Shown: positions 30,795 to 62,021, numbered from the stretch's first letter. The stretch: 64,000 nt of DNA from an uncultured Actinomycetes bacterium (GCA_963704725.1 OY969934.1:1889040-1953039); one strand, 5' to 3'. Numbers and translations: made by a program. Notes: generated by a model not told the origin, from the sequence alone.

Positions 30795-30881
30795 GTCGGA
30801 GTGGCGGAACTTGGTAGACGCGCTAGGTTGAGGGCCTAGTGACCTTCATTGGTCGTGGGGGTTCAAATCCCCCCTCCGACA
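30795..30881 (+). tRNA. tRNA-Leu (anticodon GAG), class II with long variable arm
   Basis: Hand-folded structure. 7-bp acceptor GTCGGAG/CTCCGAC. Anticodon stem CTAGG/CCTAG with loop TTGAGGG (anticodon GAG). 17-nt variable arm. T-arm GGGGG-TTCAAAT-CCCCC. Discriminator A. No encoded CCA. Confidence 0.85.
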
Positions 30882-32515
30882 CGAACCGTACGCACACCAC
30901 TCAAGTCCGCTTCCACCAGCACCCTTCGCTTGCTGGGCTCGTAGGTGAGTGACAGGCCGAGGCTCTCGTACAAGGCGGCTTTCTGCGCAGGTTCAGCCGC
31001 CCCCAGAACGCGGACGAGATCACCCAGGCTCTCAACCAGCGCCCGGATGTCGCCCTCGGTGAGTGCCGCCGTGTGACGCCGGTGGATCTCCCCCTCGGCC
31101 ATCCTGCGCTCGGCCTGGACCTCGGCGATCCACGCGGCGACGACGGCCGGGTCCGCGCCGGCATCGAGCGTCTCCCGGTAGCGGGCGAGTCGAGCGTCAC
31201 AGTCCGCGAGGGTCCGCCGAGCGCTCTCGTCGCGGTCACTCTCCGCGTCTGACGAATCCTGAGCCTCGGCGAGCGCGCGACAGGTCTCGTCCAGGCGGTC
31301 GGGCTCGAAGAGGCGCGAGATCCACTCGTCGAGCGGCGGGACGATGTGGGTCTCCCGGACGTACACCGTTGGCGGATGATCGGCTCCGCGGGGGAGCGCG
31401 TACTCCGAGGGGTAACGGCAGCGGTAGTACGCCTGGTCGTGGGTCCAGCTGCCTTGCATCCGGCGCTTGCAGAGTCCGCACCAAAGCAGGCCGCGGAGCA
31501 GGTAGGGGCGTGGTGTCCGGCGGGGCTTGCGGGTCGTGGTTCGCCCGTTGGCGACCCTCCGCACGCGGGCGGCTTCGAACAACTCCGGAGCGATCAGTGG
31601 CTCGTGCGCGAGGCCGGGGGAGCGGACCCAGGCCTCCTCGTCGTTCCATCGGAGCCGAGTCCTGTGACCCGCGGCGACGTCCTCGACGTCGACCAAGACC
31701 TCGTCGCGACGCTGCCGGCCCCAGACTGCCACTCCCGTGTACCGAGGGTTGGTCAGGACCGCCCGGACGGCACTCTTGCTCCAGCCCTGCCCGTTCCGGT
31801 GGGCGTTGCGACCCCGGTCATAGGCGGAGGGGGAGGAGATGCCGTCGCGGGTCAGAGCGTCTGCGATCGCGAAGAGGCCACGGCCCGACACGTACTCATC
31901 GAAGATCCGGACGACGATGTGCGCCGTGACGGGGTCGGGCTCGAGGTTGTGGATCCGGATGCCGAGGGCGGCCTTCCCCGGGTTGGGGTGAGGGCCTGCG
32001 TCCGCCAAGCGGTACCCGTACGGTGGGCGGCCGCCCAGGAATCGACCCTCGGTGGCGATCTGCGCGGCCATCGCGGTCCGGACCCTCGTTCGGATGCGGG
32101 AGCGCTCGCCTTTGCTCATGCCGCCGAACAGCGTCATGACCATGTCGTGGGCCTCGGAGCCCGGGTCGACCCGACCGCCGACCTCGGGGACCCACAGCTC
32201 GACGCCGTAGTGCTCGAAGAGCGGGAAGGTCAGGGCGAACTGAGCGCCGTAGAAGGCCCGCTGTGGCTCGCCGATGACGACGGCCTCGAAGCCGCGGTCC
32301 GGGGAACGAAGCAAGTCGAGCAGCCTGGAGGCTTCCGGCCTGCGCTTCCACGGGAGCGAGCGCGACTGTCCGATGTCGAAGAACTCGGCGACGATCTCGC
32401 CGCGCGCCGGCTCGACGTGCTCCAGGGCCCGCCGGAGCTGCCAGGCTCGCGAGGAGGCCGGGTCCTGCTGGTCCTCGGTCGAGACGCGTCCGTAAAAGGC
32501 AAAGGGCTTCGTCAT
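30863..32515 (-). CDS. Large serine recombinase (serine integrase)
   Basis: N-terminal resolvase catalytic domain (FAFYGRVSTEDQ ... nucleophilic Ser). Recombinase domain with a zinc-ribbon (CGLCKRRMQGSWTHDQAYYRCRY). C-terminal coiled-coil region. Stop codon lies inside the tRNA-Leu 3' end. Alternative start at 32539. Confidence 0.85.
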   Translation of the reverse strand: MTKPFAFYGRVSTEDQQDPASSRAWQLRRALEHVEPARGEIVAEFFDIGQSRSLPWKRRPEASRLLDLLRSPDRGFEAVVIGEPQRAFYGAQFALTFPLFEHYGVELWVPEVGGRVDPGSEAHDMVMTLFGGMSKGERSRIRTRVRTAMAAQIATEGRFLGGRPPYGYRLADAGPHPNPGKAALGIRIHNLEPDPVTAHIVVRIFDEYVSGRGLFAIADALTRDGISSPSAYDRGRNAHRNGQGWSKSAVRAVLTNPRYTGVAVWGRQRRDEVLVDVEDVAAGHRTRLRWNDEEAWVRSPGLAHEPLIAPELFEAARVRRVANGRTTTRKPRRTPRPYLLRGLLWCGLCKRRMQGSWTHDQAYYRCRYPSEYALPRGADHPPTVYVRETHIVPPLDEWISRLFEPDRLDETCRALAEAQDSSDAESDRDESARRTLADCDARLARYRETLDAGADPAVVAAWIAEVQAERRMAEGEIHRRHTAALTEGDIRALVESLGDLVRVLGAAEPAQKAALYESLGLSLTYEPSKRRVLVEADLSGVRTVRVGGGI

Positions 32516-35287: not shown

Positions 35288-38200
35288 ATGGTTTCGCTAC
35301 GTGTGTGCGCCCCGTGGTCCTCGTTCCGATCCCGTCCGATCTTCAGATCGCTCGGGCGTCTACGTGGGTCGATGATCTGTGGCCTCACGGTGGCTTCGCT
35401 CATTACCGTCGTGCTTCCAGTGCCCAGTGCAGTGGCGATCGCTCAGCAGGATGCCATCACCTACGTCTACGACGATCTGGGGAGACTCGAGGCCGTCGTC
35501 GATCCCGGCCAAACGAACGGCATCGCCCGCTACACGTATGACAGCGCCGGCAATCTCCTCTCGATCGCGAGGCAGAGCTCCACCGTCACCACGGTCCTGG
35601 ACTTCCAGCCGAAGACCACGACCCGCAGCTCCTCGGTCACCGTCTACGGGGCGGGGTTCAGCCCGACGGCGGGGCAGAACACCGTCCGGTTCGGTGGGCC
35701 GTCGGGCACCGCCGCGACGGTCGTCTCGGCGACAAAGACGCAGCTCCAGGTCACGGTGCCGGCCTCGGGCTCCGTCAACGGGACGGTCTTCGTCTCGAGC
35801 CCCGGCGGGAGCGCCACGAGCTCCCAGCAGTTCGCGCTCGACACGTCGACACCGCCGGCCATCACGGGGATCTCCGCCGCCGTCGCCACGATGGGATCGA
35901 CCGTCACCGTGACGGGCTCGGGCTTCGACCCTTCGGCACCGGCGATGAACAACGTCTTCCTGAACGGGATCAGGGCCCAGGTCACGGCGGCGACGGCGAC
36001 AACCCTCACCACCGTGGTGCCCCCGTTCCTCACGTCCGGACACGTCTCCGTCCAGACCCGCTGGGGCCAGGCGACCTCGATGAGCGACCTGTTCGTCCCG
36101 CCCGCCATCGACGGCGTGCCCTCCGCCGTCACCGATGTCGAGAGCACGGGACGCACGACCCTTGGTACGCCGACGGCGGTGAGCGTCACGACGCCGCAGA
36201 AGGTGGCCGTCCGGTCCTTCGACGGCACGCAGGGCGGCCGGGTCTTCATGGAGTTCTCGAGCCCGTCGGGGAACCAGGCCTGGCTGAGCCTGGTGGATCC
36301 GTTCGGCCGCGTGATGGGGAAGGACCTGATGACGACGGGCTTCCTGGAGCCCCGCACGCTGCCGGTGAGCGGGACCTACGAGGTCGTCGTCGACCCGATC
36401 GACACACAGACCGGCAACTTCACGTTCACCGCATTCGACGTCCCCGCCGACCTCTCGGGGACGATCACGCCCGACGGCGGACCGGTCGTGGCGAACATCA
36501 CCGCGAAGGGCCAGAACGCCGGCTACACCTTCACGGGCACGGCCAACCAACGCGTGTCCCTCCGGTTCAACGGTTCGGGGTGGACGGGGCTCTACTGGGT
36601 CCGCATCCTGCGGCCCGAGGGGATCGAGCTGACGAGCACGCTGAGCGTCTTCGGGTGGCAGGACCCGGTCACGCTGCCCGTCTCCGGCATCTACACGGTC
36701 GTGATCGACCCGATCGCTGGGGCCACCGGCTCCACGACTCTGACCGCCTACGACGTGCCGCCCGACAGCTCTGGGCCGATCCAGCCCAACGGCCCACCGG
36801 TGAACGTCACCGTCACGGCCGACAACGCGGGCCAGAACGCGAACCTGACCTTCGATTCGACCGTCAACCAGCAGGCGACGATCAACGTCACCGGCTCCAC
36901 GTTCCCGCAGGCCTACGCCCACCTCTACCTCGGGACCCCGCCGACGAACCCGATCTCGCTGAACCACCTGTTCCTCGGCGGGAACACCACGATCGGCCCC
37001 ATCTCCCTGTCCGCCGCGGGCAGCTACACCCTGGTGATCGACCCGATCGGCGGGTTCACGGGAAGCGCGAACATCGCGCTCACGCTGGCAGCGGGCCGTG
37101 CGACGCCGAGAGGGGGGCGGGGCGATCGCCTAAGGACGGACAGGCCGCCGTCCCCGCATTCACCGAGAGCAGCCACGGCGCTGGCCGGAGTCGTGCTCGG
37201 TCTGGACGGCTCGCCGCTCGCCGGCGTGAGCGTCGGCAGCGGAGACGTGGCAGGCGCGACCGACTCGAACGGCAGGTTCCGCCTTGCGGGCCTTCATGCC
37301 GGCCCGGGGGTCCTGGTCGTCGACGGGGCAAGCGCGTCGACCGAGGGCGCGAGCTACGGGCTGTTCCAGATCCAGGTCGAGCTCGAGCGCGGACGAACCA
37401 CGGAGCTCGGGTCCCCGGTGTGGATGCCGGAGCTCGACACGCGGCACGTCCGCCGCATCGCCAGCCCCACCCGGCGCGACGTCGTCCTTCGGACCCCGCT
37501 TGTTCCCGGGCTGCGGATCCAGATCCCGAAGGGGTCCTTGGTCAGGGATCTGGATGGTCGGGCGGTCCACGAGCTCTCGATCACGCCAGTTCCGATCGAC
37601 CGGCCACCGTTCCCGATGCCGGATGCGCCCGACTTCCCCATCTACTTCACCGTCCAGCCCGGTGGCGCCGCCGTCCTGCCCGAGGGTGCGCGGATCATCT
37701 ACCCGAATTCGGCGGCCCTGCCGGCCGGAACCGAGGTCCGGTACATGGACTACGAGCCCGCGGAGGACGGCTGGGAGTTCTACGGTCGTGGACGCGTCTC
37801 GCCCGATGGCATGCGGATCGTGCCCGATCCCGACACCCGGGTCCGTGCGTTCACCGGCTCCGCCTACCCGATCCCTCTCTACCTGTCGCCTCCGCTGGCA
37901 GATACGAACCCGCTCTCCGAGCTCGGCGAGCCCGTGGACCTGTCGACCGGGTTGTTCCACTACACGAAGACGGACCTCGCGCTGCCCGGCCCCATGCCGA
38001 TCCAGCTCACCCGGATCTACCGGCAAGGGGATCCGAACGCGGAGCCCTTCGGCCTCGGCATGACGTACAGCTACCAGTCCTATCTGAGCTGGGACTGGCC
38101 GTCCCCCGACAACCAGTGGAAGGACCTCATCCTTCCCGGCGGGGTCCGGGTGCACTTCGACCGGATCACCCCCGGGACCGACGTGGAGCACGCCGTCTAC

Positions 38201-41200
38201 GAGGCGACCGCTACACCGGGGCCGTTCTTCAAGTCCCGGATCAGCTGGGATCCGGTGCTGCGGTCCTGGCTCCTCACGCGGCGGGACGGCACGGTGATGG
38301 TCTTCGGGCTGGGGGGAAGCGGGAGCGCGTTGCGAGACGTGGCGGACCGGTACGGCAACCGCCTCGTGCTGATCGGGCCCGCCGGAACGAGTCCCCAGCC
38401 TGCCACGCAGATCGTCTCCTGGCCCTCGGGCAGGTGGATCAACCTGTCGATCTCGAACGGCCGGGTGACGCAGGCCACCGACGACCTGGGGCGGAGCGTC
38501 GGGTACGGCTACGACGGGCAGGGGCGCCTGGCGAGCGTGACCGACCCGAACCAGTTCGGCCAGCCCTCGCCGAAGTCGTCCATCTACGGCTGGGTCACCG
38601 ATCCCGACTGCACAAGTCCGGGATCCGTGCTCGCCACGATCACCGATCCCCGCAACATCACGTGGCTGTCGAACACCTACGGGCCCGGGTGCCGGGTTAC
38701 GCAGCAGACCGTCCCCACGGCGACGGGGACCGACGTCTACACGTTCGCGTACACGCCCTCGGGGCCCGGCGCCGTCACTCAGGCGGACATGACGGATCCC
38801 AACGGCAACGTGCACCGGGAGTCCTTCGACTCGACCGGCTACATGACGTCGGAGACCATCGCGCTGGGAACGCCGTCCGCGCGGACGTTCACGTACGAGC
38901 GGGACCCCACCAACCACCGCACCAGCGCCGTCGTCGATGCCTTCCACAACCGCAGGACCGAGTTCACGTACAACGCGTTCGGCCAGCCGACGTCCGTCAC
39001 CCGTCTTGCCGGCACCCCGCAGGCGGTCACCACGTCGTACACGTACGATCCGGTCTTCCGACAGCTGGAGACGATCACCGATCCACTCACCCACGTCACA
39101 CGCTTCGCGTACGACGCGGCGGGATGTCTCGACTCGGTCCAAGACCCGATGAGCCGGACGACCTTGTTCGACTGCAACGGTGCCGGTCAGATCACGCAGA
39201 TCACCGATCCGCTCACGCACGCGAGTGTGCTCTCCTACGCTCATGGAGACCTCACCTCAGCGACGGATCCGCTCGGTCGGACCACGTCTCGGTTCACCGA
39301 CGGCGGTGGGCGCGTCCTCGCGGTCACAGATCCGCTCAACCACCCGACGACCTACGCCTTCGACAAGCTGAACGAGCTCACCCAGGTCACCGATCCGATC
39401 GGCGGGCTCATCTCGTTCACCCTCGACGAAGACGGCAACCTCACCGAGGTGAACGACCAGCGCCGGGGATCGCCCAGCCGGACCGACCTCGTTTACAACA
39501 ACCTGAACCTGCCGAGCACTCGAACCGACCCACTCGGCCGTCAGGAGACGTTCACCTACGACGACCTCGGCAACCTGACGTTCTGGACCGACCGCAAGAA
39601 CCAGACGACGGAGTTCCGCTACGACGCACTCAACCAGCTGACGTTCGCGGGATACAAGCGGACGGCGGGGCCGGTTTACGAGTCCACGATCACCTACACG
39701 TGGGACGTCGGGAGCCGGCTGACGCAGATCGCGGACACGACAGCCAACGCCGGCACGATCACGCGGACCTACGATGACCTGGACCGGCTCACGAACGAGA
39801 CCTCGGTCAACGCTTCGGCCTCGGGGGTCACCTACACGTACAACCCCGATGACACCCGGGCGACGATGACCGTGCAGAACCAGACCCAGGTGCTCTACGG
39901 CTACAACCCGGCCGCCCAGCTCACGAGCCTCACCCAAGGCGGCCTGGTGGTCGGCCTGGACTACCTCGGCGACGGCAGGCTCCGCCAGGTCTCCCTCCCC
40001 TCCTCGCCGGTGCTCACGCAGACCTACGCGTACGACGCGGCGGGCGAGATCGCCTCGATCGCCTACCAACGCGGTACCGGCACCCCGGACGACCTCTCCT
40101 ACGGCTACGACCCGAGCGGGGCTCGGACCTCGGTCTTCGGCAGCTACGCCCGCACGGGGCTCCCCGCCGCCACGACGGCCACGGCCGTCTACAACGTCGC
40201 GAACCAGCTGACGTCGTGGAGCGGAGCCGCAGTGGCGAGCGACCTCAACGGCAACATGACGTCGCAGGCCGGGCTCACCTACGCGTACAACGCGCGCAAC
40301 CAGCTCACGAGCGTAAAGCAGAGCAAGACCACGCTCGGCGCCTTCGTCTACGACGGACTGGGCCGACGCGTGCGCCGCACGATCTCGTCCGCGGTCACGC
40401 GGCCCGTCTACGATGGGTGGAACGTGGTCCAGGAACGGAGCAGCGCGGGCTCGGTGACGGCGAACCTACTCGTGGGGCGCGGGCTGGATGACGTCTTCAC
40501 CCGGACCGAAACGGCCCAACGGGAGTTCTTGTCCGACGCTTTGGGCTCGACCGTCGCGCTTGCCGACACCTCCGGGGTGGTGCAGACCTCCTACACGTAC
40601 GAGCCGTTCGGCCGGACCACTGCCACCGGGGCGTCGAGTTCGAGCACTTACCAGTTCACGGGCAGGGAGAACGATTCGACGGGGACGCTCTCGCTCTACA
40701 ACCTGCGAGCCCGATACCTGTCGCCGACGTTGGCGAGGTTCATCAGCCAGGATCCGATAGGCCTCTCAAGCAGTGACGTCAACTTGTACGAGTACGCTGA
40801 TGACACGCCGACGGGCCGTATCGATCCGACCGGCCTCTTCAGCGTCTGGCCTCCAGTTGTTGGCCCAGACTTGAGCGTGCACGAGGTTGGCGGGGGCAAC
40901 CCAGCGGGTTGGGTTTGGGACAGCACAGTGGGAACCATCTCCCACCTGGATGACTGGTGGTCGATGGCACGGAAGGATTTTGAACGCCAATCCGAGTTCG
41001 TAAGGCGCGAAGGAGGGTGGATGGCCGATGACCTGTTCGGAGAGCACGGCATACTGACGTCGTTCGGTCAATGCTTGGTCGTCGGTTTGGACTACATGAT
41101 CCTCGCCACCAACGCGGGCCTGGACCCCGAGGATGCCGCTCTGTTCGGGCTAGTTGGCTGCGCGGTGGGGATGAACACTCCGCCGACGCCACCCATTACC

Positions 41201-41203
41201 TAG
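35288..41203 (+). CDS. Rhs/YD-repeat polymorphic toxin (1971 aa) with IPT/TIG-like domains, carboxypeptidase-regulatory-like domain, RHS core and a novel C-terminal domain
   Basis: Long signal-like N-terminus. N-terminal YD motif (YVYDDLGRLEAVVDPG ... YTYDSAGNLLSI). Several Ig-like/IPT segments (VTVYGAGFSPTAGQNTVRFGG). Dozens of YD repeats (e.g. YGYDGQGRLASVTDPN, FTYDDLGNLTFWTDRKNQ). RHS repeat-associated core (LYNLRARYLSPTLARFISQDPIGLSSSDVNLYEYADDTPTGRIDPTGL). It ends at 40837 and is followed by a 121-aa CT domain (40838..41200). Confidence 0.85.
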   Translation: MVSLRVCAPWSSFRSRPIFRSLGRLRGSMICGLTVASLITVVLPVPSAVAIAQQDAITYVYDDLGRLEAVVDPGQTNGIARYTYDSAGNLLSIARQSSTVTTVLDFQPKTTTRSSSVTVYGAGFSPTAGQNTVRFGGPSGTAATVVSATKTQLQVTVPASGSVNGTVFVSSPGGSATSSQQFALDTSTPPAITGISAAVATMGSTVTVTGSGFDPSAPAMNNVFLNGIRAQVTAATATTLTTVVPPFLTSGHVSVQTRWGQATSMSDLFVPPAIDGVPSAVTDVESTGRTTLGTPTAVSVTTPQKVAVRSFDGTQGGRVFMEFSSPSGNQAWLSLVDPFGRVMGKDLMTTGFLEPRTLPVSGTYEVVVDPIDTQTGNFTFTAFDVPADLSGTITPDGGPVVANITAKGQNAGYTFTGTANQRVSLRFNGSGWTGLYWVRILRPEGIELTSTLSVFGWQDPVTLPVSGIYTVVIDPIAGATGSTTLTAYDVPPDSSGPIQPNGPPVNVTVTADNAGQNANLTFDSTVNQQATINVTGSTFPQAYAHLYLGTPPTNPISLNHLFLGGNTTIGPISLSAAGSYTLVIDPIGGFTGSANIALTLAAGRATPRGGRGDRLRTDRPPSPHSPRAATALAGVVLGLDGSPLAGVSVGSGDVAGATDSNGRFRLAGLHAGPGVLVVDGASASTEGASYGLFQIQVELERGRTTELGSPVWMPELDTRHVRRIASPTRRDVVLRTPLVPGLRIQIPKGSLVRDLDGRAVHELSITPVPIDRPPFPMPDAPDFPIYFTVQPGGAAVLPEGARIIYPNSAALPAGTEVRYMDYEPAEDGWEFYGRGRVSPDGMRIVPDPDTRVRAFTGSAYPIPLYLSPPLADTNPLSELGEPVDLSTGLFHYTKTDLALPGPMPIQLTRIYRQGDPNAEPFGLGMTYSYQSYLSWDWPSPDNQWKDLILPGGVRVHFDRITPGTDVEHAVYEATATPGPFFKSRISWDPVLRSWLLTRRDGTVMVFGLGGSGSALRDVADRYGNRLVLIGPAGTSPQPATQIVSWPSGRWINLSISNGRVTQATDDLGRSVGYGYDGQGRLASVTDPNQFGQPSPKSSIYGWVTDPDCTSPGSVLATITDPRNITWLSNTYGPGCRVTQQTVPTATGTDVYTFAYTPSGPGAVTQADMTDPNGNVHRESFDSTGYMTSETIALGTPSARTFTYERDPTNHRTSAVVDAFHNRRTEFTYNAFGQPTSVTRLAGTPQAVTTSYTYDPVFRQLETITDPLTHVTRFAYDAAGCLDSVQDPMSRTTLFDCNGAGQITQITDPLTHASVLSYAHGDLTSATDPLGRTTSRFTDGGGRVLAVTDPLNHPTTYAFDKLNELTQVTDPIGGLISFTLDEDGNLTEVNDQRRGSPSRTDLVYNNLNLPSTRTDPLGRQETFTYDDLGNLTFWTDRKNQTTEFRYDALNQLTFAGYKRTAGPVYESTITYTWDVGSRLTQIADTTANAGTITRTYDDLDRLTNETSVNASASGVTYTYNPDDTRATMTVQNQTQVLYGYNPAAQLTSLTQGGLVVGLDYLGDGRLRQVSLPSSPVLTQTYAYDAAGEIASIAYQRGTGTPDDLSYGYDPSGARTSVFGSYARTGLPAATTATAVYNVANQLTSWSGAAVASDLNGNMTSQAGLTYAYNARNQLTSVKQSKTTLGAFVYDGLGRRVRRTISSAVTRPVYDGWNVVQERSSAGSVTANLLVGRGLDDVFTRTETAQREFLSDALGSTVALADTSGVVQTSYTYEPFGRTTATGASSSSTYQFTGRENDSTGTLSLYNLRARYLSPTLARFISQDPIGLSSSDVNLYEYADDTPTGRIDPTGLFSVWPPVVGPDLSVHEVGGGNPAGWVWDSTVGTISHLDDWWSMARKDFERQSEFVRREGGWMADDLFGEHGILTSFGQCLVVGLDYMILATNAGLDPEDAALFGLVGCAVGMNTPPTPPIT

Positions 41204-41209
41204 TCATCG

Positions 41210-41656
41210 ATGACACACGAAGAGAAAGACGAGAAGCGTCAGCGCAAAGGACCGTTGATGCACGATCCGTCAGAGGATGTTCGACGACGCCACGCCATCC
41301 TGCTGATTGTCGTGGGGCTCGGACTCCTAAGCGTCGGCACCGTCTCTTGGGTGCGAGGCGGCTCACCGGCGGCCATGGCTTCCATGATTCCCGGACTTGC
41401 GGGAGTGCTCGGAGGTCTCCTGCTCCTCGCTCGCCGGGGCCTAATCCTCCGCCCTACCGCGAGGTTTCTGAGCATCCAGCCCGACGTCTTGCTGAAGCTC
41501 TCGGTGGTGGCTCTGGCGGCGGCTTCAGCTGTGTACCTCGGCTGGGTAGCGGTTGTTCAGTACCGCCAGGGTAGGGCGGACGCGGGATTGACCGTCGTGA
41601 TGGCGGCACTGAGCATCTACGTGACAATTCGGGCTTTCACCAACCTTCGCCGATAG
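41210..41656 (+). CDS. Putative Rhs-toxin immunity protein, 4-TM membrane protein
   Basis: 148 aa starting 7 nt after the Rhs stop codon. Four predicted TM helices (AILLIVVGLGLLSVGTV, MIPGLAGVLGGLLLLA, LLKLSVVALAAASAVYLGWVAVV, LTVVMAALSIYVTIRAF). Lowest GC in the window (about 53%). Confidence 0.55.
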   Translation: MTHEEKDEKRQRKGPLMHDPSEDVRRRHAILLIVVGLGLLSVGTVSWVRGGSPAAMASMIPGLAGVLGGLLLLARRGLILRPTARFLSIQPDVLLKLSVVALAAASAVYLGWVAVVQYRQGRADAGLTVVMAALSIYVTIRAFTNLRR

Positions 41657-41934
41657 GACGGTTACCGGCCGTCGCTCTTCGCGGTTGGCAGGTGCAGAGG
41701 CCGGGACGCACTCAGGATGCGTGACGAGAACCTTAACAGGGGAACCGGTTCACACATCGTCCAGCAAGGTCCACGATTGGGCACCTGTGTGACCACCGCG
41801 GCCGTCCCTGCGACGGACTTGACCGCCACTGGTGGGGTTTACGGGCCGAATCACGCTGAGAGGCGAAGTTCACCTCGAAGGACGAGCCGCGTACGTATGG
41901 TCGTCGACGGTCCTCCGACACCACTGTGATGTGT

Positions 41935-43205
41935 CGGGTGCATCGTGGCCGGATGTGTCGGTGCATCGTAGCCGCCCTCACGAGGCTTGAGGCTGGTAGT
42001 CGCGGGCCGGGTCCAGTGTGAGATGTCGAAGCAGCTCTCCGTTCGCCGACACCACCCGCACGTCCAGACCGTTGATCAGCAGGATCACCCGCTTGCCCTT
42101 GTGAGCGTGACCCACGCCGATGTGGTGCAGCCGCGTTCCATGGCGCAGCGTGACCTTCCCGCCCTTGTCGATCCGGTCCCGACGCACCCGAACGCCCGCA
42201 CCCACGCGGATCCTGGGTCCTGAGGGACGCGCCTTGTCTCTGGCCTCGAACGCCGCTCTGGGCGGCCTGCGGCCCAGCGCTGCATGCGGCCTGCGGTCGT
42301 TGTAGTAGGCGACGAACCGATCGACCTGGTCTTGCAGCTCACCGAGCGAGCTGGCCTTGGGCTGACGGGCCAGGTAGGTCTTCATCGTCTGGTGGAAGCG
42401 CTCGACCTTGCCGCAGGTCTGGGGGTGATAGGGCCGGGAGTGACGGTAGTCGATACCGAGCGCCAGCAGCTCGGTCTGCATCACGTTGGGCCCTCCCCGG
42501 TGCCACGTCGTGTAGACGCAGCCGTTGTCGGTCAAAAGCGCCGCCGGGAACCCCCAGCGCGCGCCGGCTTCGCGGAAGACCTCGAGCACCTTGGGGGCGG
42601 TGGCGGTCCGCATCACCACCGAGGCCACGGCCGCCCGGGAGTGGTCATCCAGGAAGTTGCAGATGTCGACCTCGGTCCCATCCCCAAGCCGCCAGTGGGT
42701 CACGTCGGACTGCCAGCACTCGTTGGGAAGCGTGGCCTCGAAGCGGATCCAGGAGCTCCGGGGCCGCTTGTGGGGCTGGGAGACCACGAAGCCACGACGT
42801 CTCAGCACCCGCCAGATCGTCGAGATCGACGGCACCCGGTCGTGCCTCGTGCTCAGGTGGTAGGCGATCGTGGCCGCGCCGGCATCCACGCCCAGCTCCG
42901 TGAGCTCCGTGCGCAGGGCGCAGATCTCGTCCTCGAGCGCATGCAGGCGTGCGGTGCGGGATCGTCTTGGGCGCCCTCGACCGCGGGGCGATCGCCTCGT
43001 AGCCGCCCGATCGGTACCGGGCGACCAGCTTGCCGACCCAGCTCTTGGAGACCCCGTGGGCCCGGGCCACCTCCCGGTAGCTCCGTCCCTCCAGCACGAC
43101 CGCGTCCACCACGTAGCGAGCCAGATCCATCGCAGACCCCCGTTGAAGGTGTCCACGATGCTCCGACACATGTGTCCACTATCCGGTGAACTCAGGCACC
43201 CCCTC
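41935..43205. mobile_element. IS481-family insertion sequence (about 1.27 kb), boundaries approximate
   Basis: Imperfect terminal inverted repeats TGTGTCGGGTGCATCGTGG (41940-41958) and CCACGATGCTCCGACACA (43162-43179, reverse complement TGTGTCGGAGCATCGTGG). Flanked by 13-bp direct repeats CCTCCGACACCAC (41922-41934 and 43207-43219). Internal DDE transposase gene. Confidence 0.6.
41978..43169 (-). pseudogene. IS481-family DDE transposase, frameshifted
   Basis: N-terminal HTH part is in one frame (start 43169; MDLARYVVDAVVLEGRSYREVARAHGVSKSWVGKLVARYRSGGYEAIAPRSRAPKTIPHRTP). The remainder is shifted by 1 from about 42955 (ARLHALEDEICALRTELTELGVDAGAATIAYHL ... integrase core with D..D..E: WQSDVTH, LTDNGCVYT, CGKVERFHQTMK), ending at the stop 41978-41980. 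Confidence 0.7.
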
Positions 43206-59600: not shown

Positions 59601-60011
59601 CTACTGGTACTGGACGGCGCAGTTGATGAAGGTGTCGTTCCCGCCGCCACCGATGCAGACATCCGCGCCGTTCCCGCCGCGGATCGTGTCGTCTCCATCC
59701 CCGCCGAGCATGCAGTCGTTGCCGCCCTGACCACGGATGGTGTCGGACCCGGCGCTGCCCAGGATCAGCTCGCTCTGCCCGGTGCCGCGGAAGTTACCCG
59801 AGCCGGCCACGATGCTCGTCAGGGTCAGGGCGCTGCACTGGGGCGGCGCGAACTCGCTCACCAGATTCGCGTGGCTGAGATCGTCGGCGTGGGTCAGGGG
59901 CACGAGATTCGCCGCGGTGAGGCCGAGGACCGCGATGCCGGCGAGGCCGAACGCCACGAGCACCCCGAGAAGGGAGACCCGTCGCACCCGCCGCCGCCGA
60001 CGCGGTCGCAT
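59601..60011 (-). CDS. Small secreted protein with Gly/Asp-rich calcium-binding-type repeats and a TAAN-type signal peptide
   Basis: ATG 60009-60011 overlaps the stop of the upstream peptidase gene. Basic N-terminus plus TM (MRPRRRRRVRRVSLLGVLVAFGLAGIAVLGLTAANLVPLTHADD). C-terminal GGxGxD repeats (GQGGNDCMLGGDGDDTIRGGNGADVCIGGGGNDTF). The 229-aa ORF-track entry over-extends. Confidence 0.6.
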   Translation of the reverse strand: MRPRRRRRVRRVSLLGVLVAFGLAGIAVLGLTAANLVPLTHADDLSHANLVSEFAPPQCSALTLTSIVAGSGNFRGTGQSELILGSAGSDTIRGQGGNDCMLGGDGDDTIRGGNGADVCIGGGGNDTFINCAVQYQ

Positions 60012-61618
60012 CACGAGTGGACCCCGTTCGAGACCAGGTACCGGTAGGTCACGCCGTCCTCCTCGACGGTGTAGGCGTGGAAGCCGGCGCCCTCCTCGTG
60101 CAGGACGACGTGGCCGTAGTGGTTGGCCAGGCGCAGGAGCGCGTCGAAGCTGTCCACCTGCACGCTCCGGTCGCTCGGGGCGAGGGCGCCCGCGTGGACC
60201 GGCACGAGGAACTGCCCGTAGCGGGTCTCGATGGCGGCCGCCTCTCCGCGGCGGGCCGAGAGCAGCCGGCGGAGGACGATGGCCAGCCACCCGAGGGCGG
60301 CGACCCCGAAGACGGCGAGCGATCCGACGCGGAGCGGGTCCATCCCGAGGTCGCGGCCGAGGATCGAGAAGGTCCGCGGCTCCTCGGTCTGGGTCTTGAC
60401 GAGCCCGGCCGTGTCGGGGTGGATGGGATCGGCTGCCGCCTCACCCGTGGACGAGACGCTGGTGGGTTCGAGCTGGAGCTGCAGCGGGTCGAGGAGGAAG
60501 CGGAGCTCCGGAGCGAAGGTCTCGGCGAGCGGGCGGCCCGCCAGGGTCCCCTCGACCCGGACGTCGGGGCGGACCGCCACCGTGTAGTGGTCGCGCTCGA
60601 CGCCCGTGAGATGCTCGAGCTTCGCCGTCATGGCCAGCAGTGCCTGAAGGTCGAGCTGGCCCTCGACGTGGACGCCGGCGCCCTGGAACGCCGTCGCCGG
60701 CGCGAGCTCGATCGTCCGCGTCCAGCCGTTCACGTCGGAGAGCTCGGCCACCATCCGCACCGTCCCCGAGGCGTCCACCGTGGCCGAGCTGTCGATCGCG
60801 TAGTCGAACGCCACCTGCAGCCGGCTCGTGAGGTGGAGGTACGCGGGGTCGCCGGTCTGGACCGCGCCGGCTCCGTAGGCGTCGTGGCCCTCGGACGCCA
60901 CGAGTCCCGTGTACGAGAAGGTCCCCTGCTGGTCGTAGGTCACGTCGTGCTTGGTCGTCACCGTCGGCGAGAGCGCGAACAGGAGGCCGCTCAGCGCGAG
61001 GGAGAGGATGGCGACGCCGGCGAAGGCCGGCACGAGCCCGGCCGGCACGATCATCCGGTGCGCCGTGGGGGCGGGGCCGGGGCCGTGGCCGTTGCCGGCC
61101 TGTAGGGCGGGGGCTTCTTCACGCGCCGCGGCGGCGCGCCGGGATCCGCGACGCATCCGGCGTCGGCCGCCGAAGACCGCGAGCCCGGCCAGGGAGACGA
61201 TCGCGCCGATGCCCCACGGGGTGCGGACCGCGCCGAGGCGCATCCCGAGGTCGGGCACGTGGAACGCCATCGATCCGAAGATCTCGGATGCCGCGGGGTG
61301 GTAGTCGTCCATCCAGCTGTTGTTGTCGCCCTTCACCACGAAGCGGTCGCCGTCGAGCGCCACGATCCGGTGCAGGACGACGTGGTGGATGTCCGGATTG
61401 CGGTAGGCGACGACGTCGCCCACGACGTACTCGGAGCTGGGGTAGACCACGGCCAGGTCGCCGCCGTGCAGGAGAGGCTCCATGCTCGTCCCCGTGGTGG
61501 TCACGTAGGACGCCCGCCCGCCGAGCTGCCGCGGAGCGAAGAAGTACCAGCTGACGATGAGGAGGGCCGCGCAGGCGCCGAGTGCGGCAGCCCGTGCGAC
61601 CCTCCTCCGCGTGCTCAT
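60011..61618 (-). CDS. SipW-type (S26B, Ser/His dyad) signal peptidase fused to a large C-terminal membrane/extracytoplasmic domain
   Basis: N-terminal TM. Catalytic block GTSMEPLLHGGDLAVV ... HHVVLHRIV ... VVKGDNNSWMDD. Second TM. About 390 extra residues with two further predicted TMs (AFAGVAILSLALSGLLFAL and VGSLAVFGVAALGWLAIVL) and a cytoplasmic tail of about 70 aa. Confidence 0.65.
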   Translation of the reverse strand: MSTRRRVARAAALGACAALLIVSWYFFAPRQLGGRASYVTTTGTSMEPLLHGGDLAVVYPSSEYVVGDVVAYRNPDIHHVVLHRIVALDGDRFVVKGDNNSWMDDYHPAASEIFGSMAFHVPDLGMRLGAVRTPWGIGAIVSLAGLAVFGGRRRMRRGSRRAAAAREEAPALQAGNGHGPGPAPTAHRMIVPAGLVPAFAGVAILSLALSGLLFALSPTVTTKHDVTYDQQGTFSYTGLVASEGHDAYGAGAVQTGDPAYLHLTSRLQVAFDYAIDSSATVDASGTVRMVAELSDVNGWTRTIELAPATAFQGAGVHVEGQLDLQALLAMTAKLEHLTGVERDHYTVAVRPDVRVEGTLAGRPLAETFAPELRFLLDPLQLQLEPTSVSSTGEAAADPIHPDTAGLVKTQTEEPRTFSILGRDLGMDPLRVGSLAVFGVAALGWLAIVLRRLLSARRGEAAAIETRYGQFLVPVHAGALAPSDRSVQVDSFDALLRLANHYGHVVLHEEGAGFHAYTVEEDGVTYRYLVSNGVHS

Positions 61619-61646
61619 TGCGTGCCTCCCGACACCGTCGACGTAA

Positions 61647-62021
61647 CTAGTCGGCGATGATGATCCGCAAGTTGTTGGCGCTGAGCACCGGCTCCCCGGT
61701 CACCGTGCAGACCACGGGCGCGGCCACCGGGCACGTGTACCAGGTGCCCCCGTCCACGACCTGGACCCGGATCGCCGACCCGGCGGTCACGGCCGGGGTG
61801 GCGGTGAAGGTGACCGTGTCCATCGTGCTCGGATCGGTTGCGTTCAGTCCGTAGTGCACGCCGCTGATCGCGTATCCGGAGATCACGGTCTCCCCGTCGC
61901 CGGCGTGGCTGTCCGCCGGCATCGTGTTGGCCGCGGTGAAGGCGTAGGTGCCGGCCACGATCGCCCCGGCGAGGATGAACACCGTGGCGAAGCGCCCCAT
62001 CTTCGAACCTCTGCTGCGCAT
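61647..62021 (-). CDS. Small secreted protein with a TAAN-type signal peptide (putative SipW substrate)
   Basis: 124 aa (or 117 aa from the second Met). Signal MGRFATVFILAGAIVAGTYAFTAANTMPADS. Mature part is Thr/Val-rich and beta-rich in character. Confidence 0.55.
   Translation of the reverse strand: MRSRGSKMGRFATVFILAGAIVAGTYAFTAANTMPADSHAGDGETVISGYAISGVHYGLNATDPSTMDTVTFTATPAVTAGSAIRVQVVDGGTWYTCPVAAPVVCTVTGEPVLSANNLRIIIAD

Follow-up and report, generated by a model that had tools for sequence, protein, structure and literature searches.

A three-gene module of soil Actinomycetota and Chloroflexota couples a signal peptidase–DUF5305 fusion to two candidate cognate substrates

Signal peptidases of the SipW/Sec11 type that are dedicated to donor-strand fibers are known from Bacillus (TasA) and, since 2022–2025, from archaea (ABP, threads, Tafi and cannulae). 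In bacteria, this endoplasmic reticulum (ER)/SipW-type peptidase is a specialized rather than a general enzyme, as SipW is next to SipS/T in Bacillus subtilis. Here we describe a locus within a 64,000-nucleotide stretch of DNA from an uncultured Actinomycetes bacterium (GCA_963704725.1 OY969934.1:1889040-1953039; hereafter, the window), in which a SipW-like peptidase fused to a DUF5305 domain (protein B) is encoded between two small exported proteins (A and C). Sequence comparisons support A and C as the probable cognate substrates of B. We favor, with a probability of roughly 0.55, a model in which the three genes form a self-contained peptidase–substrate module, with A as an immunoglobulin (Ig)-like donor-strand fiber subunit and C as its tip or initiator.

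Two described systems come closest. In tapA-sipW-tasA of B. subtilis, the gene for an ER-type Ser-His peptidase is flanked by those of two cognate secreted substrates, which share a class-specific region across the cleavage site. TapA, the minor one of the two, has an N-terminal donor strand resembling that of TasA and acts as nucleator of the TasA fiber (PMC10151520, PMC9674648). In the loci of Tat-fimbriae (Tafi) and DUF1102 proteins, a SipW/Sec11-type peptidase works with a DUF5305 protein: TafD processes the fimbrial subunit TafA and is accompanied by TafG (Galeva 2025, PMC11821415; PMC12337348). The small β-sandwich subunits TafA/TafE are joined by N-terminal donor strands (PMC11821415, PMC12337348), that of TafE having been seen by cryo-electron microscopy (PMC12337348). 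Mature TafA begins at Phe-30 by mass spectrometry (PMC11821415), and TafC, which combines a donor strand with an unrelated domain, is modeled as the tip (PMC11821415, PMC12337348). DUF5305 has been put forward as a putative accessory subunit of type I signal peptidase (SPase I) in the AbpX preprint, which cites an Anaerolinea fusion (10.64898/2026.01.04.697558). Bacterial SPase I–DUF5305 fusions with the domain architecture of B, which belongs among them, are on record from Actinoplanes lutulentus (WP_221402508.1), Tepidiforma (WP_158065712.1) and Anaerolinea thermophila (E8MZY1) (10.64898/2026.01.04.697558; PMC11821415, which lists bacterial DUF5305-containing peptidases). Because of these cases the fusion is already known, and a preliminary description of the locus erred in treating it as unheard-of. 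Both papers used the fusion solely to support DUF5305 as a peptidase accessory, and our literature search found no account of the gene trio, of its substrates or of the N-terminal motif common to them. Apparently new are the bacterial family of substrates, the N-terminal cassette that they share and the minimal module of three genes.

The three genes are co-directional, tightly packed as first described, and all called by the source genome annotation; they occupy 59601-62021 on the minus strand.

Gene A: 61647..62021, minus strand, open reading frame (ORF) of 124 aa
A-B spacer: 61619..61646, minus strand, 28 nt, with a GGGAGG ribosome-binding site read 8 nt 5' of the B start
Gene B: 60011..61618, minus strand, ORF of 535 aa
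Gene C: 59601..60011 (ATG start, 136 aa) or 59601..60014 (GTG start, 137 aa), minus strand

A and B do not overlap. At the B/C junction, which reads GTGATG, the C start overlaps the B stop by 4 nt (GTGA) or 1 nt (TGATG); the overlap reported earlier is real, although not in the form ATGA. In the source annotation, A begins at Met8 (117 aa). Shine-Dalgarno-like sites precede both ATGs, and Met1 at 62021 is the likelier start on sequence grounds because the MRSR n-region 5' of Met8 is conserved in the closest relatives (L001-L003).

Like tapA-sipW-tasA, the locus places a peptidase gene between those of two secreted proteins that share a class-specific region across the predicted cleavage site, and its minor protein carries a candidate donor strand. 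Unlike that system, the peptidase is fused to DUF5305 and the minor protein is an RTX β-roll. The TasA jelly roll spans ~230 aa, whereas mature A would comprise ~97 aa with a 75-aa Ig-like core, and the A/C motif, AYA↓FTASNTVP (arrow, predicted cut), is not of the TasA type; mature TasA begins AFNDIKS. The resemblance to Tafi lies in the pairing of peptidase and DUF5305, in small β-sandwich subunits (in A, the predicted core), in a candidate tip or initiator with a putative donor strand and an unrelated domain, as in TafC, and in the N-terminal Phe of mature TafA, as predicted for A (PMC11821415, PMC12337348). In contrast to Tafi, the A-B-C module is bacterial (Actinomycetota, Chloroflexota), uses Sec-type signals and joins peptidase and DUF5305 in one polypeptide; it has only three genes, with no TafB regulator or TafF anchor, and an RTX protein as tip candidate. 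Members of the A family are smaller than, and unrelated in sequence to, TafA, TafE and DUF1102. The locus has what marks donor-strand-fiber loci, namely a dedicated, locus-encoded SipW/Sec11-type peptidase, DUF5305 and a minor or tip candidate. It differs from the Streptococcus pyogenes pilus island, where the signal-peptidase homologue SipA/LepA is devoid of the catalytic residues and serves LPXTG pilins that are linked by sortase. In B, Ser, His and Asp are all retained, and the surroundings of its gene encode neither a sortase nor an LPXTG protein.

The association of A with B was examined in 80 loci anchored on the peptidase, of which 77 are testable for A, the other three having the peptidase at a contig edge. 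In 77/77, the peptidase gene is immediately preceded by an A-like ORF in the same orientation, across two phyla and in neighborhoods that are otherwise unrelated; 15 loci hold 2–6 A-like copies. A C-like RTX gene directly follows B in ~17/80 loci, often with a 4-nt overlap. A reciprocal sample started from four long-contig members of A's own subfamily; here A adjoined genes for both a peptidase and an RTX protein in 4/4 loci, once in the order B-C-A. A survey of the 80 loci for other partner genes (sortase, anchors, regulators) returned none beyond lineage-specific synteny, the commonest other cluster occurring in 16/80. The A-B-C arrangement is far from chance. We regard A and C as likely cognates of B because of the 77/77 adjacency, the reciprocal result, the lack of any other conserved gene and the confinement of the N-terminal module described below to A and C in the window. 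The claim that these genes form a dedicated processing cluster, conserved with the peptidase, is thus well supported by adjacency and the shared module.

These counts bear on whether B might be a housekeeping signal peptidase with two unrelated secreted proteins next to it by chance. Public records annotate B only as "signal peptidase I", and the genes flanking the locus are ordinary, unrelated housekeeping ones (HAD hydrolase, ABC-F ATPase, GH13 glucosidase and Asp-Al exchanger-type permease), both as such a coincidence would predict. It is nevertheless highly improbable given an adjacency that persists across two phyla despite unrelated surroundings, the reciprocal result, an N-terminal module found on no other window ORF and the assignment of B to the ER/SipW type, in bacteria the specialized enzyme.

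At least 338 GTDB species genomes carry the fusion, mainly those of Solirubrobacterales, Gaiellales, Acidimicrobiia and Chloroflexota, and the module is widespread in soil Actinomycetota and Chloroflexota. One locus of the reciprocal sample (L081 5454-5978; JGI 3300060356, a 1.44 Mb contig) encodes an unfused 174-aa SipW-like peptidase with an A gene on one side and an RTX gene on the other, the exact layout of tapA-sipW-tasA. This enzyme is 47% identical to B residues 10-134 and ends just past the equivalent of the second transmembrane (TM) helix; no DUF5305 gene was found within 5 kb, and a HisKA kinase gene follows. Since the peptidase stands alone here, what is conserved as a unit is the A/peptidase/C trio, to which DUF5305 is an optional accessory that is usually fused. 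Elsewhere, one peptidase sits amid six A-like paralogues on both sides plus a C-like gene (L011 4307-8908), which suggests diversification into major and minor subunits. In 15 Solirubrobacteraceae loci, a membrane GGDEF diguanylate cyclase gene lies ~2.9 kb upstream of the peptidase on the same strand (e.g., L045 227-1447); this recurrence may reflect lineage-specific synteny or a cyclic di-GMP link to surface or biofilm functions.

Both neighbors of B are small exported proteins, as first proposed, and their N-termini belong together.

A residues 1-27: 61941..62021, minus strand, Sec-type signal peptide (basic n-region, h-region 11-24, T-Y-A at -3..-1) with predicted cut after Ala27, from hydropathy and alignment
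A residues 28-49 (FTAANTMPADSHAGDGETVISG): 61875..61940, minus strand, conserved mature N-terminal extension; candidate peptidase/DUF5305 recognition element and donor strand
C residues 1-52 (ATG numbering; LTAANLVPLTHADD...): 59856..60011, minus strand, signal peptide with predicted cut V-L-G↓L-T-A-A-N, plus an A-type N-terminal extension

An alignment of 107 N-termini defines the shared module as a basic n-region and an h-region followed by G-[AG]-Y-A-F-T-A-[SA]-N-T-V-P-x3-A-G-x-G. Position -1 is Ala in 101/107 and position -3 is small (A/G/T/V), so the -3/-1 rule places the predicted cut at A-Y-A↓F-T-A, which corresponds to Ala27 in A and Gly30 in C. Among the window ORFs, only A and C carry the module (N-terminal hidden Markov model, E = 8e-16 and 4e-12), and the C N-terminus is matched by both this model and the A-family profile (E = 3.8e-12 in the window). 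A–C homology reaches ~+20, beyond which the mature domains are unrelated. Models TIGR04088/TIGR04089 and Peptidase_M73 gave no match in A or C (E <= 1) or in 133 A-family members (E <= 0.1), and the DUF1102 and archaellin models gave no real match in these proteins. The suggestion of a SipW-like cognate signal class thus holds insofar as the N-terminal region common to A and C is class-specific, as would be expected of substrates that share a dedicated peptidase; it fails as to TIGR04088, there being no NCBIfam match in A, C or the 133 members. Judged by sequence, the A/C signal is an uncatalogued class distinct from TIGR04088. A third type of passenger occurs in two Chloroflexia loci (L051 7530-8069 and L059 7593-8048), where a gene downstream of the peptidase encodes a YAFTAA... 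signal followed by Thr/Asp/Pro-rich low-complexity repeats.

Protein B has two parts, which the AlphaFold 2 (AF2) model (mean predicted local distance difference test score, pLDDT, 88.6) joins through four TM helices (2-27, 134-156, 195-215 and 426-456) that are also supported by hydropathy.

B residues 2-131: 61226..61615, minus strand, TM1 (2-27) and extracytoplasmic peptidase domain (β-domain 36-121) with Ser45, His83 and Asp98/Asp104 (GDNN..D)
B residues 134-194: 61037..61219, minus strand, TM2 (134-156) and Arg-rich disordered cytoplasmic linker, the peptidase/DUF5305 junction (AF2)
B residues 195-456: 60251..61036, minus strand, TM3 (195-215), β-rich ectodomain 219-425 (~205 aa) and TM4 (426-456), the membrane and extracellular part of DUF5305
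B residues 459-530: 60029..60244, minus strand, cytoplasmic α/β domain of DUF5305 (AF2)

Over residues 20-146, NCBIfam TIGR02228 (archaeal-type signal peptidase I) scores 56.2 bits, above its cut-off of 51.85, and Pfam Peptidase_S24 likewise matches the N-terminal domain (33.5 bits versus 23.3). The motifs SMEPLL, HHVVLHRI and VKGDNN, from which an S26B-type enzyme was first proposed, are present, and Ser45 (SMEP), His83 (LHRI), Asp98 (GDNN) and Asp104 are invariant in an alignment of 99 homologues, the catalytic Ser/His among them. Searched against the Protein Data Bank (PDB), the B-family profile finds human SEC11C (E = 3.9e-10) and SEC11A (3e-9) as its best matches, with the SMEP, HR and GDNN motifs aligned; the predicted fold is the S24/S26 β-fold, with an N-terminal TM anchor and an extracytoplasmic active domain. 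On the strength of the TIGR02228 match, the invariant catalytic residues and the SEC11C/SEC11A alignment, B is assigned by sequence to the ER/archaeal (SipW/Sec11, MEROPS S26B) Ser-His type I signal peptidases, the class of SipW, with an intact active site.

Beyond the peptidase, B matches Pfam DUF5305 (PF17231) across residues 304-527 and profile positions 6-217 of 217 (E = 2.5e-6), at 27.6 bits against a cut-off of 29. DUF5305 was matched by 14/15 diverse B-family members (best E 1.9e-11), and most homologues carry precomputed PF17231 annotation. The architecture of one TM helix, a β ectodomain, a second TM helix and an α/β domain fits the published description of DUF5305 (10.64898/2026.01.04.697558). 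This topology agrees with that first proposed, apart from an ectodomain of ~205 aa rather than ~220. The linker has a disordered loop at 159-182 and 9 K+R in segment 150-200, and conserved residues of the family include R430, L494, L506, H507, Y525 and R526. Two genes or a frameshift product were considered as a source of the long ORF and ruled out by its continuity (zero internal stops), by a G+C content at third codon positions of 0.94-0.98 in each quarter and by >234 homologues of ~520-540 aa with both domains. In two long-read contigs of metagenome-assembled genomes (L003, L084), the B homologue appears in pieces with fragmentary gene calls (e.g., P0048, 391 aa; P0034, 347 aa), most likely from assembly frameshift errors rather than real gene splits.

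The mature part of A ends in a single domain.

A residues 50-124: 61650..61874, minus strand, six-strand Ig/fibronectin type III (FnIII)-like β-sandwich core with two conserved Cys (Cys97 and Cys105, the latter C106 in the alignment-summary numbering)

The AF2 monomer of A (mean pLDDT 80) is helical at 5-31, is modeled with low confidence at 32-49 (pLDDT 51-59 for the extension) and forms the sandwich at 50-124 (>90), in accord with the β protein first described. A has no Pfam, NCBIfam family or PDB sequence match, and its family profile returned only noise against all PDB sequences. The family itself is large: 537 homologues are word-indexed, and at 50% identity there are 1,960 clusters, of which 1,129 match at E <= 1e-10; nearly all members have 115-140 aa. 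A thus belongs to an apparently undescribed family of small secreted Ig-like proteins. The earlier likening of the neighbors to TasA/CalY does not hold, A not being detectably homologous to these proteins by sequence or fold, and it lacks the jelly-roll fold of TasA, AbpA, thread and CanA subunits.

Three A-family members from JGI metagenomes (P0219, P0231 and P0242) are named "archaellin" by JGI, the others being "hypothetical". This label raises the thought that A is type IV pilin- or archaellin-like, with its hydrophobic helix retained as a filament core and the adjacent peptidase coincidental or otherwise employed. We judge this the least probable of the readings considered. In the alignment, Gly or Ala is not conserved at the -1 position ahead of the hydrophobic segment (of 107 sequences, column 9 has G in 32, L in 23, I in 14 and M in 13), and a near-invariant small -3/-1 pair follows the h-region instead. 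Genes for a prepilin peptidase, an assembly ATPase or a platform protein were found neither in the window flanks nor in the related loci, where the universal partner is an SPase-I-type peptidase. Pfam Pilin and Arch_flagellin yield one sub-threshold match each among the 133 members (Arch_flagellin at E = 0.039), and C has the same N-terminus with an RTX domain behind it. The "archaellin" label is probably a mis-transfer from the helix-plus-Ig-like architecture.

The Ca-binding GGxGxD repeats noticed at the outset are those of C, which matches PF00353 (HemolysinCabind; E = 4.3e-13, 49.4 bits versus a cut-off of 23). Five RTX nonapeptides are readable in the sequence and conserved across the C family, and C can be classed from its sequence as a small secreted RTX (Ca-binding β-roll) protein with four conserved Cys. 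It does not have the marks of type I secretion: it carries an N-terminal Sec-type signal instead, genes for a type I system are not adjacent, and the neighboring ABC protein is of the soluble ABC-F type.

By analogy with the systems above, a TasA/Tafi-like surface fiber is a plausible product of the module. A and C would be exported by Sec and cut by B after the invariant small residue, leaving a mature A of 97 residues with an N-terminal Phe. With its ~20-residue extension as donor β-strand, one A subunit would then complete the six-strand Ig-like core of the next, and a thin extracellular fiber would result. C would sit at one fiber end as initiator or tip, analogous to TapA for TasA and TafC for Tafi, because it has the donor extension and no acceptor Ig domain; folding of its RTX β-roll would involve extracellular Ca2+. 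The ectodomain of DUF5305 may help the peptidase hold or hand over substrates and would be dispensable in some lineages.

Support for the extension doing more than marking the cleavage site comes from several observations. Conservation along A is highest at positions +1..+8 (4.10 bits versus 3.02 for the core), A–C homology runs on to ~+20, and in the AF2 model a low-confidence extension precedes a core above 90. The A and C extensions also covary within genomes: identity over +1..+22 is 0.391 versus 0.327 when shuffled (p about 0.001), and +9..+22 gives p about 0.002, values that are optimistic with 12 loci in about 5-6 clades. The h-regions show no such covariation (p = 0.64). Signal peptidases contact roughly -7 to +3 of their substrates.

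Alternatively, B could mature proteins that do not polymerize, with A an Ig-like surface or matrix protein and C a Ca-binding one, acting as monomers such as adhesins or cell-envelope or S-layer-associated factors; the extension would then be a recognition or retention tag for the peptidase–DUF5305 protein. All evidence for a cognate peptidase–substrate relationship fits this equally. Several considerations that favor it are at the same time those that weigh against the donor-strand model. The A core is not detectably related to TasA, AbpA, TafE or thread subunits in sequence or fold, and resembles generic FnIII/Ig domains, which are also frequent in non-polymerizing surface proteins. The module has no conserved cell-wall anchor, sortase, regulator or assembly factor at its side, which leaves fiber attachment unaccounted for. 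The covariation, with its small sample, cannot tell a fit to an acceptor groove from a fit to the peptidase or DUF5305. Further against the donor-strand model, C is missing from most Solirubrobacterales loci and is therefore non-essential, the DUF5305 score of the window's own B falls slightly below the Pfam cut-off, and we infer both cleavage at the proposed site and polymerization; the matrix or fiber function raised in the preliminary description would have the same footing.

We nevertheless consider monomeric products unlikely, if a serious contender. Near-invariance to +8, A–C homology to ~+20 and covariation at +9..+22 all extend past the contacts of a signal peptidase, and the several A paralogues per locus resemble major/minor pilin sets. 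Subunits that exchange strands typically show a six-strand sandwich whose N-terminal strand is modeled with low confidence. In addition, donor-strand fibers are the product of every characterized system in which a SipW/Sec11-type peptidase is paired with either DUF5305 or a minor protein that flanks it (PMC11821415, PMC12337348, PMC10151520).

The donor-strand model can be carried further, to a proposal that we advance tentatively and at less than even odds. The A family may be the subunit of unrecognized, minimal bacterial donor-strand pili that are common in soil Actinomycetota and Chloroflexota. The SPase–DUF5305 protein would both cut the subunits and serve as their membrane assembly platform, and AYA↓FTASNTVP...AGxG would be a portable sorting, cleavage and donor-strand cassette on Ig-like, RTX or Thr-rich passengers. 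If this is true, mature A (~97 residues with a 75-residue core) would be smaller than the TasA-, Tafi- and chaperone-usher-type subunits with which we compared it, in a comparison that was not systematic.

The window has a G+C content of ~70%, and scans of the locus and its 5' region for promoters, terminators and Rfam families returned nothing meaningful. A single tRNA-Leu(GAG) gene lies at 30795-30882 on the plus strand, and at 38000-42000 the G+C content dips to 0.64-0.67 with a negative GC skew (-0.10).

The shared N-terminal motif provides an annotation handle, which could name ~2,000 "hypothetical protein" clusters (some mislabeled "archaellin") and find further substrates genome-wide. 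The natural occurrence of fused and unfused peptidases with the same substrates offers a clean system for defining the role of DUF5305. If our reading is true, the principle of a dedicated peptidase serving donor-strand assembly would extend, in compact form and with a new subunit family and signal class, to two abundant and poorly studied soil phyla.

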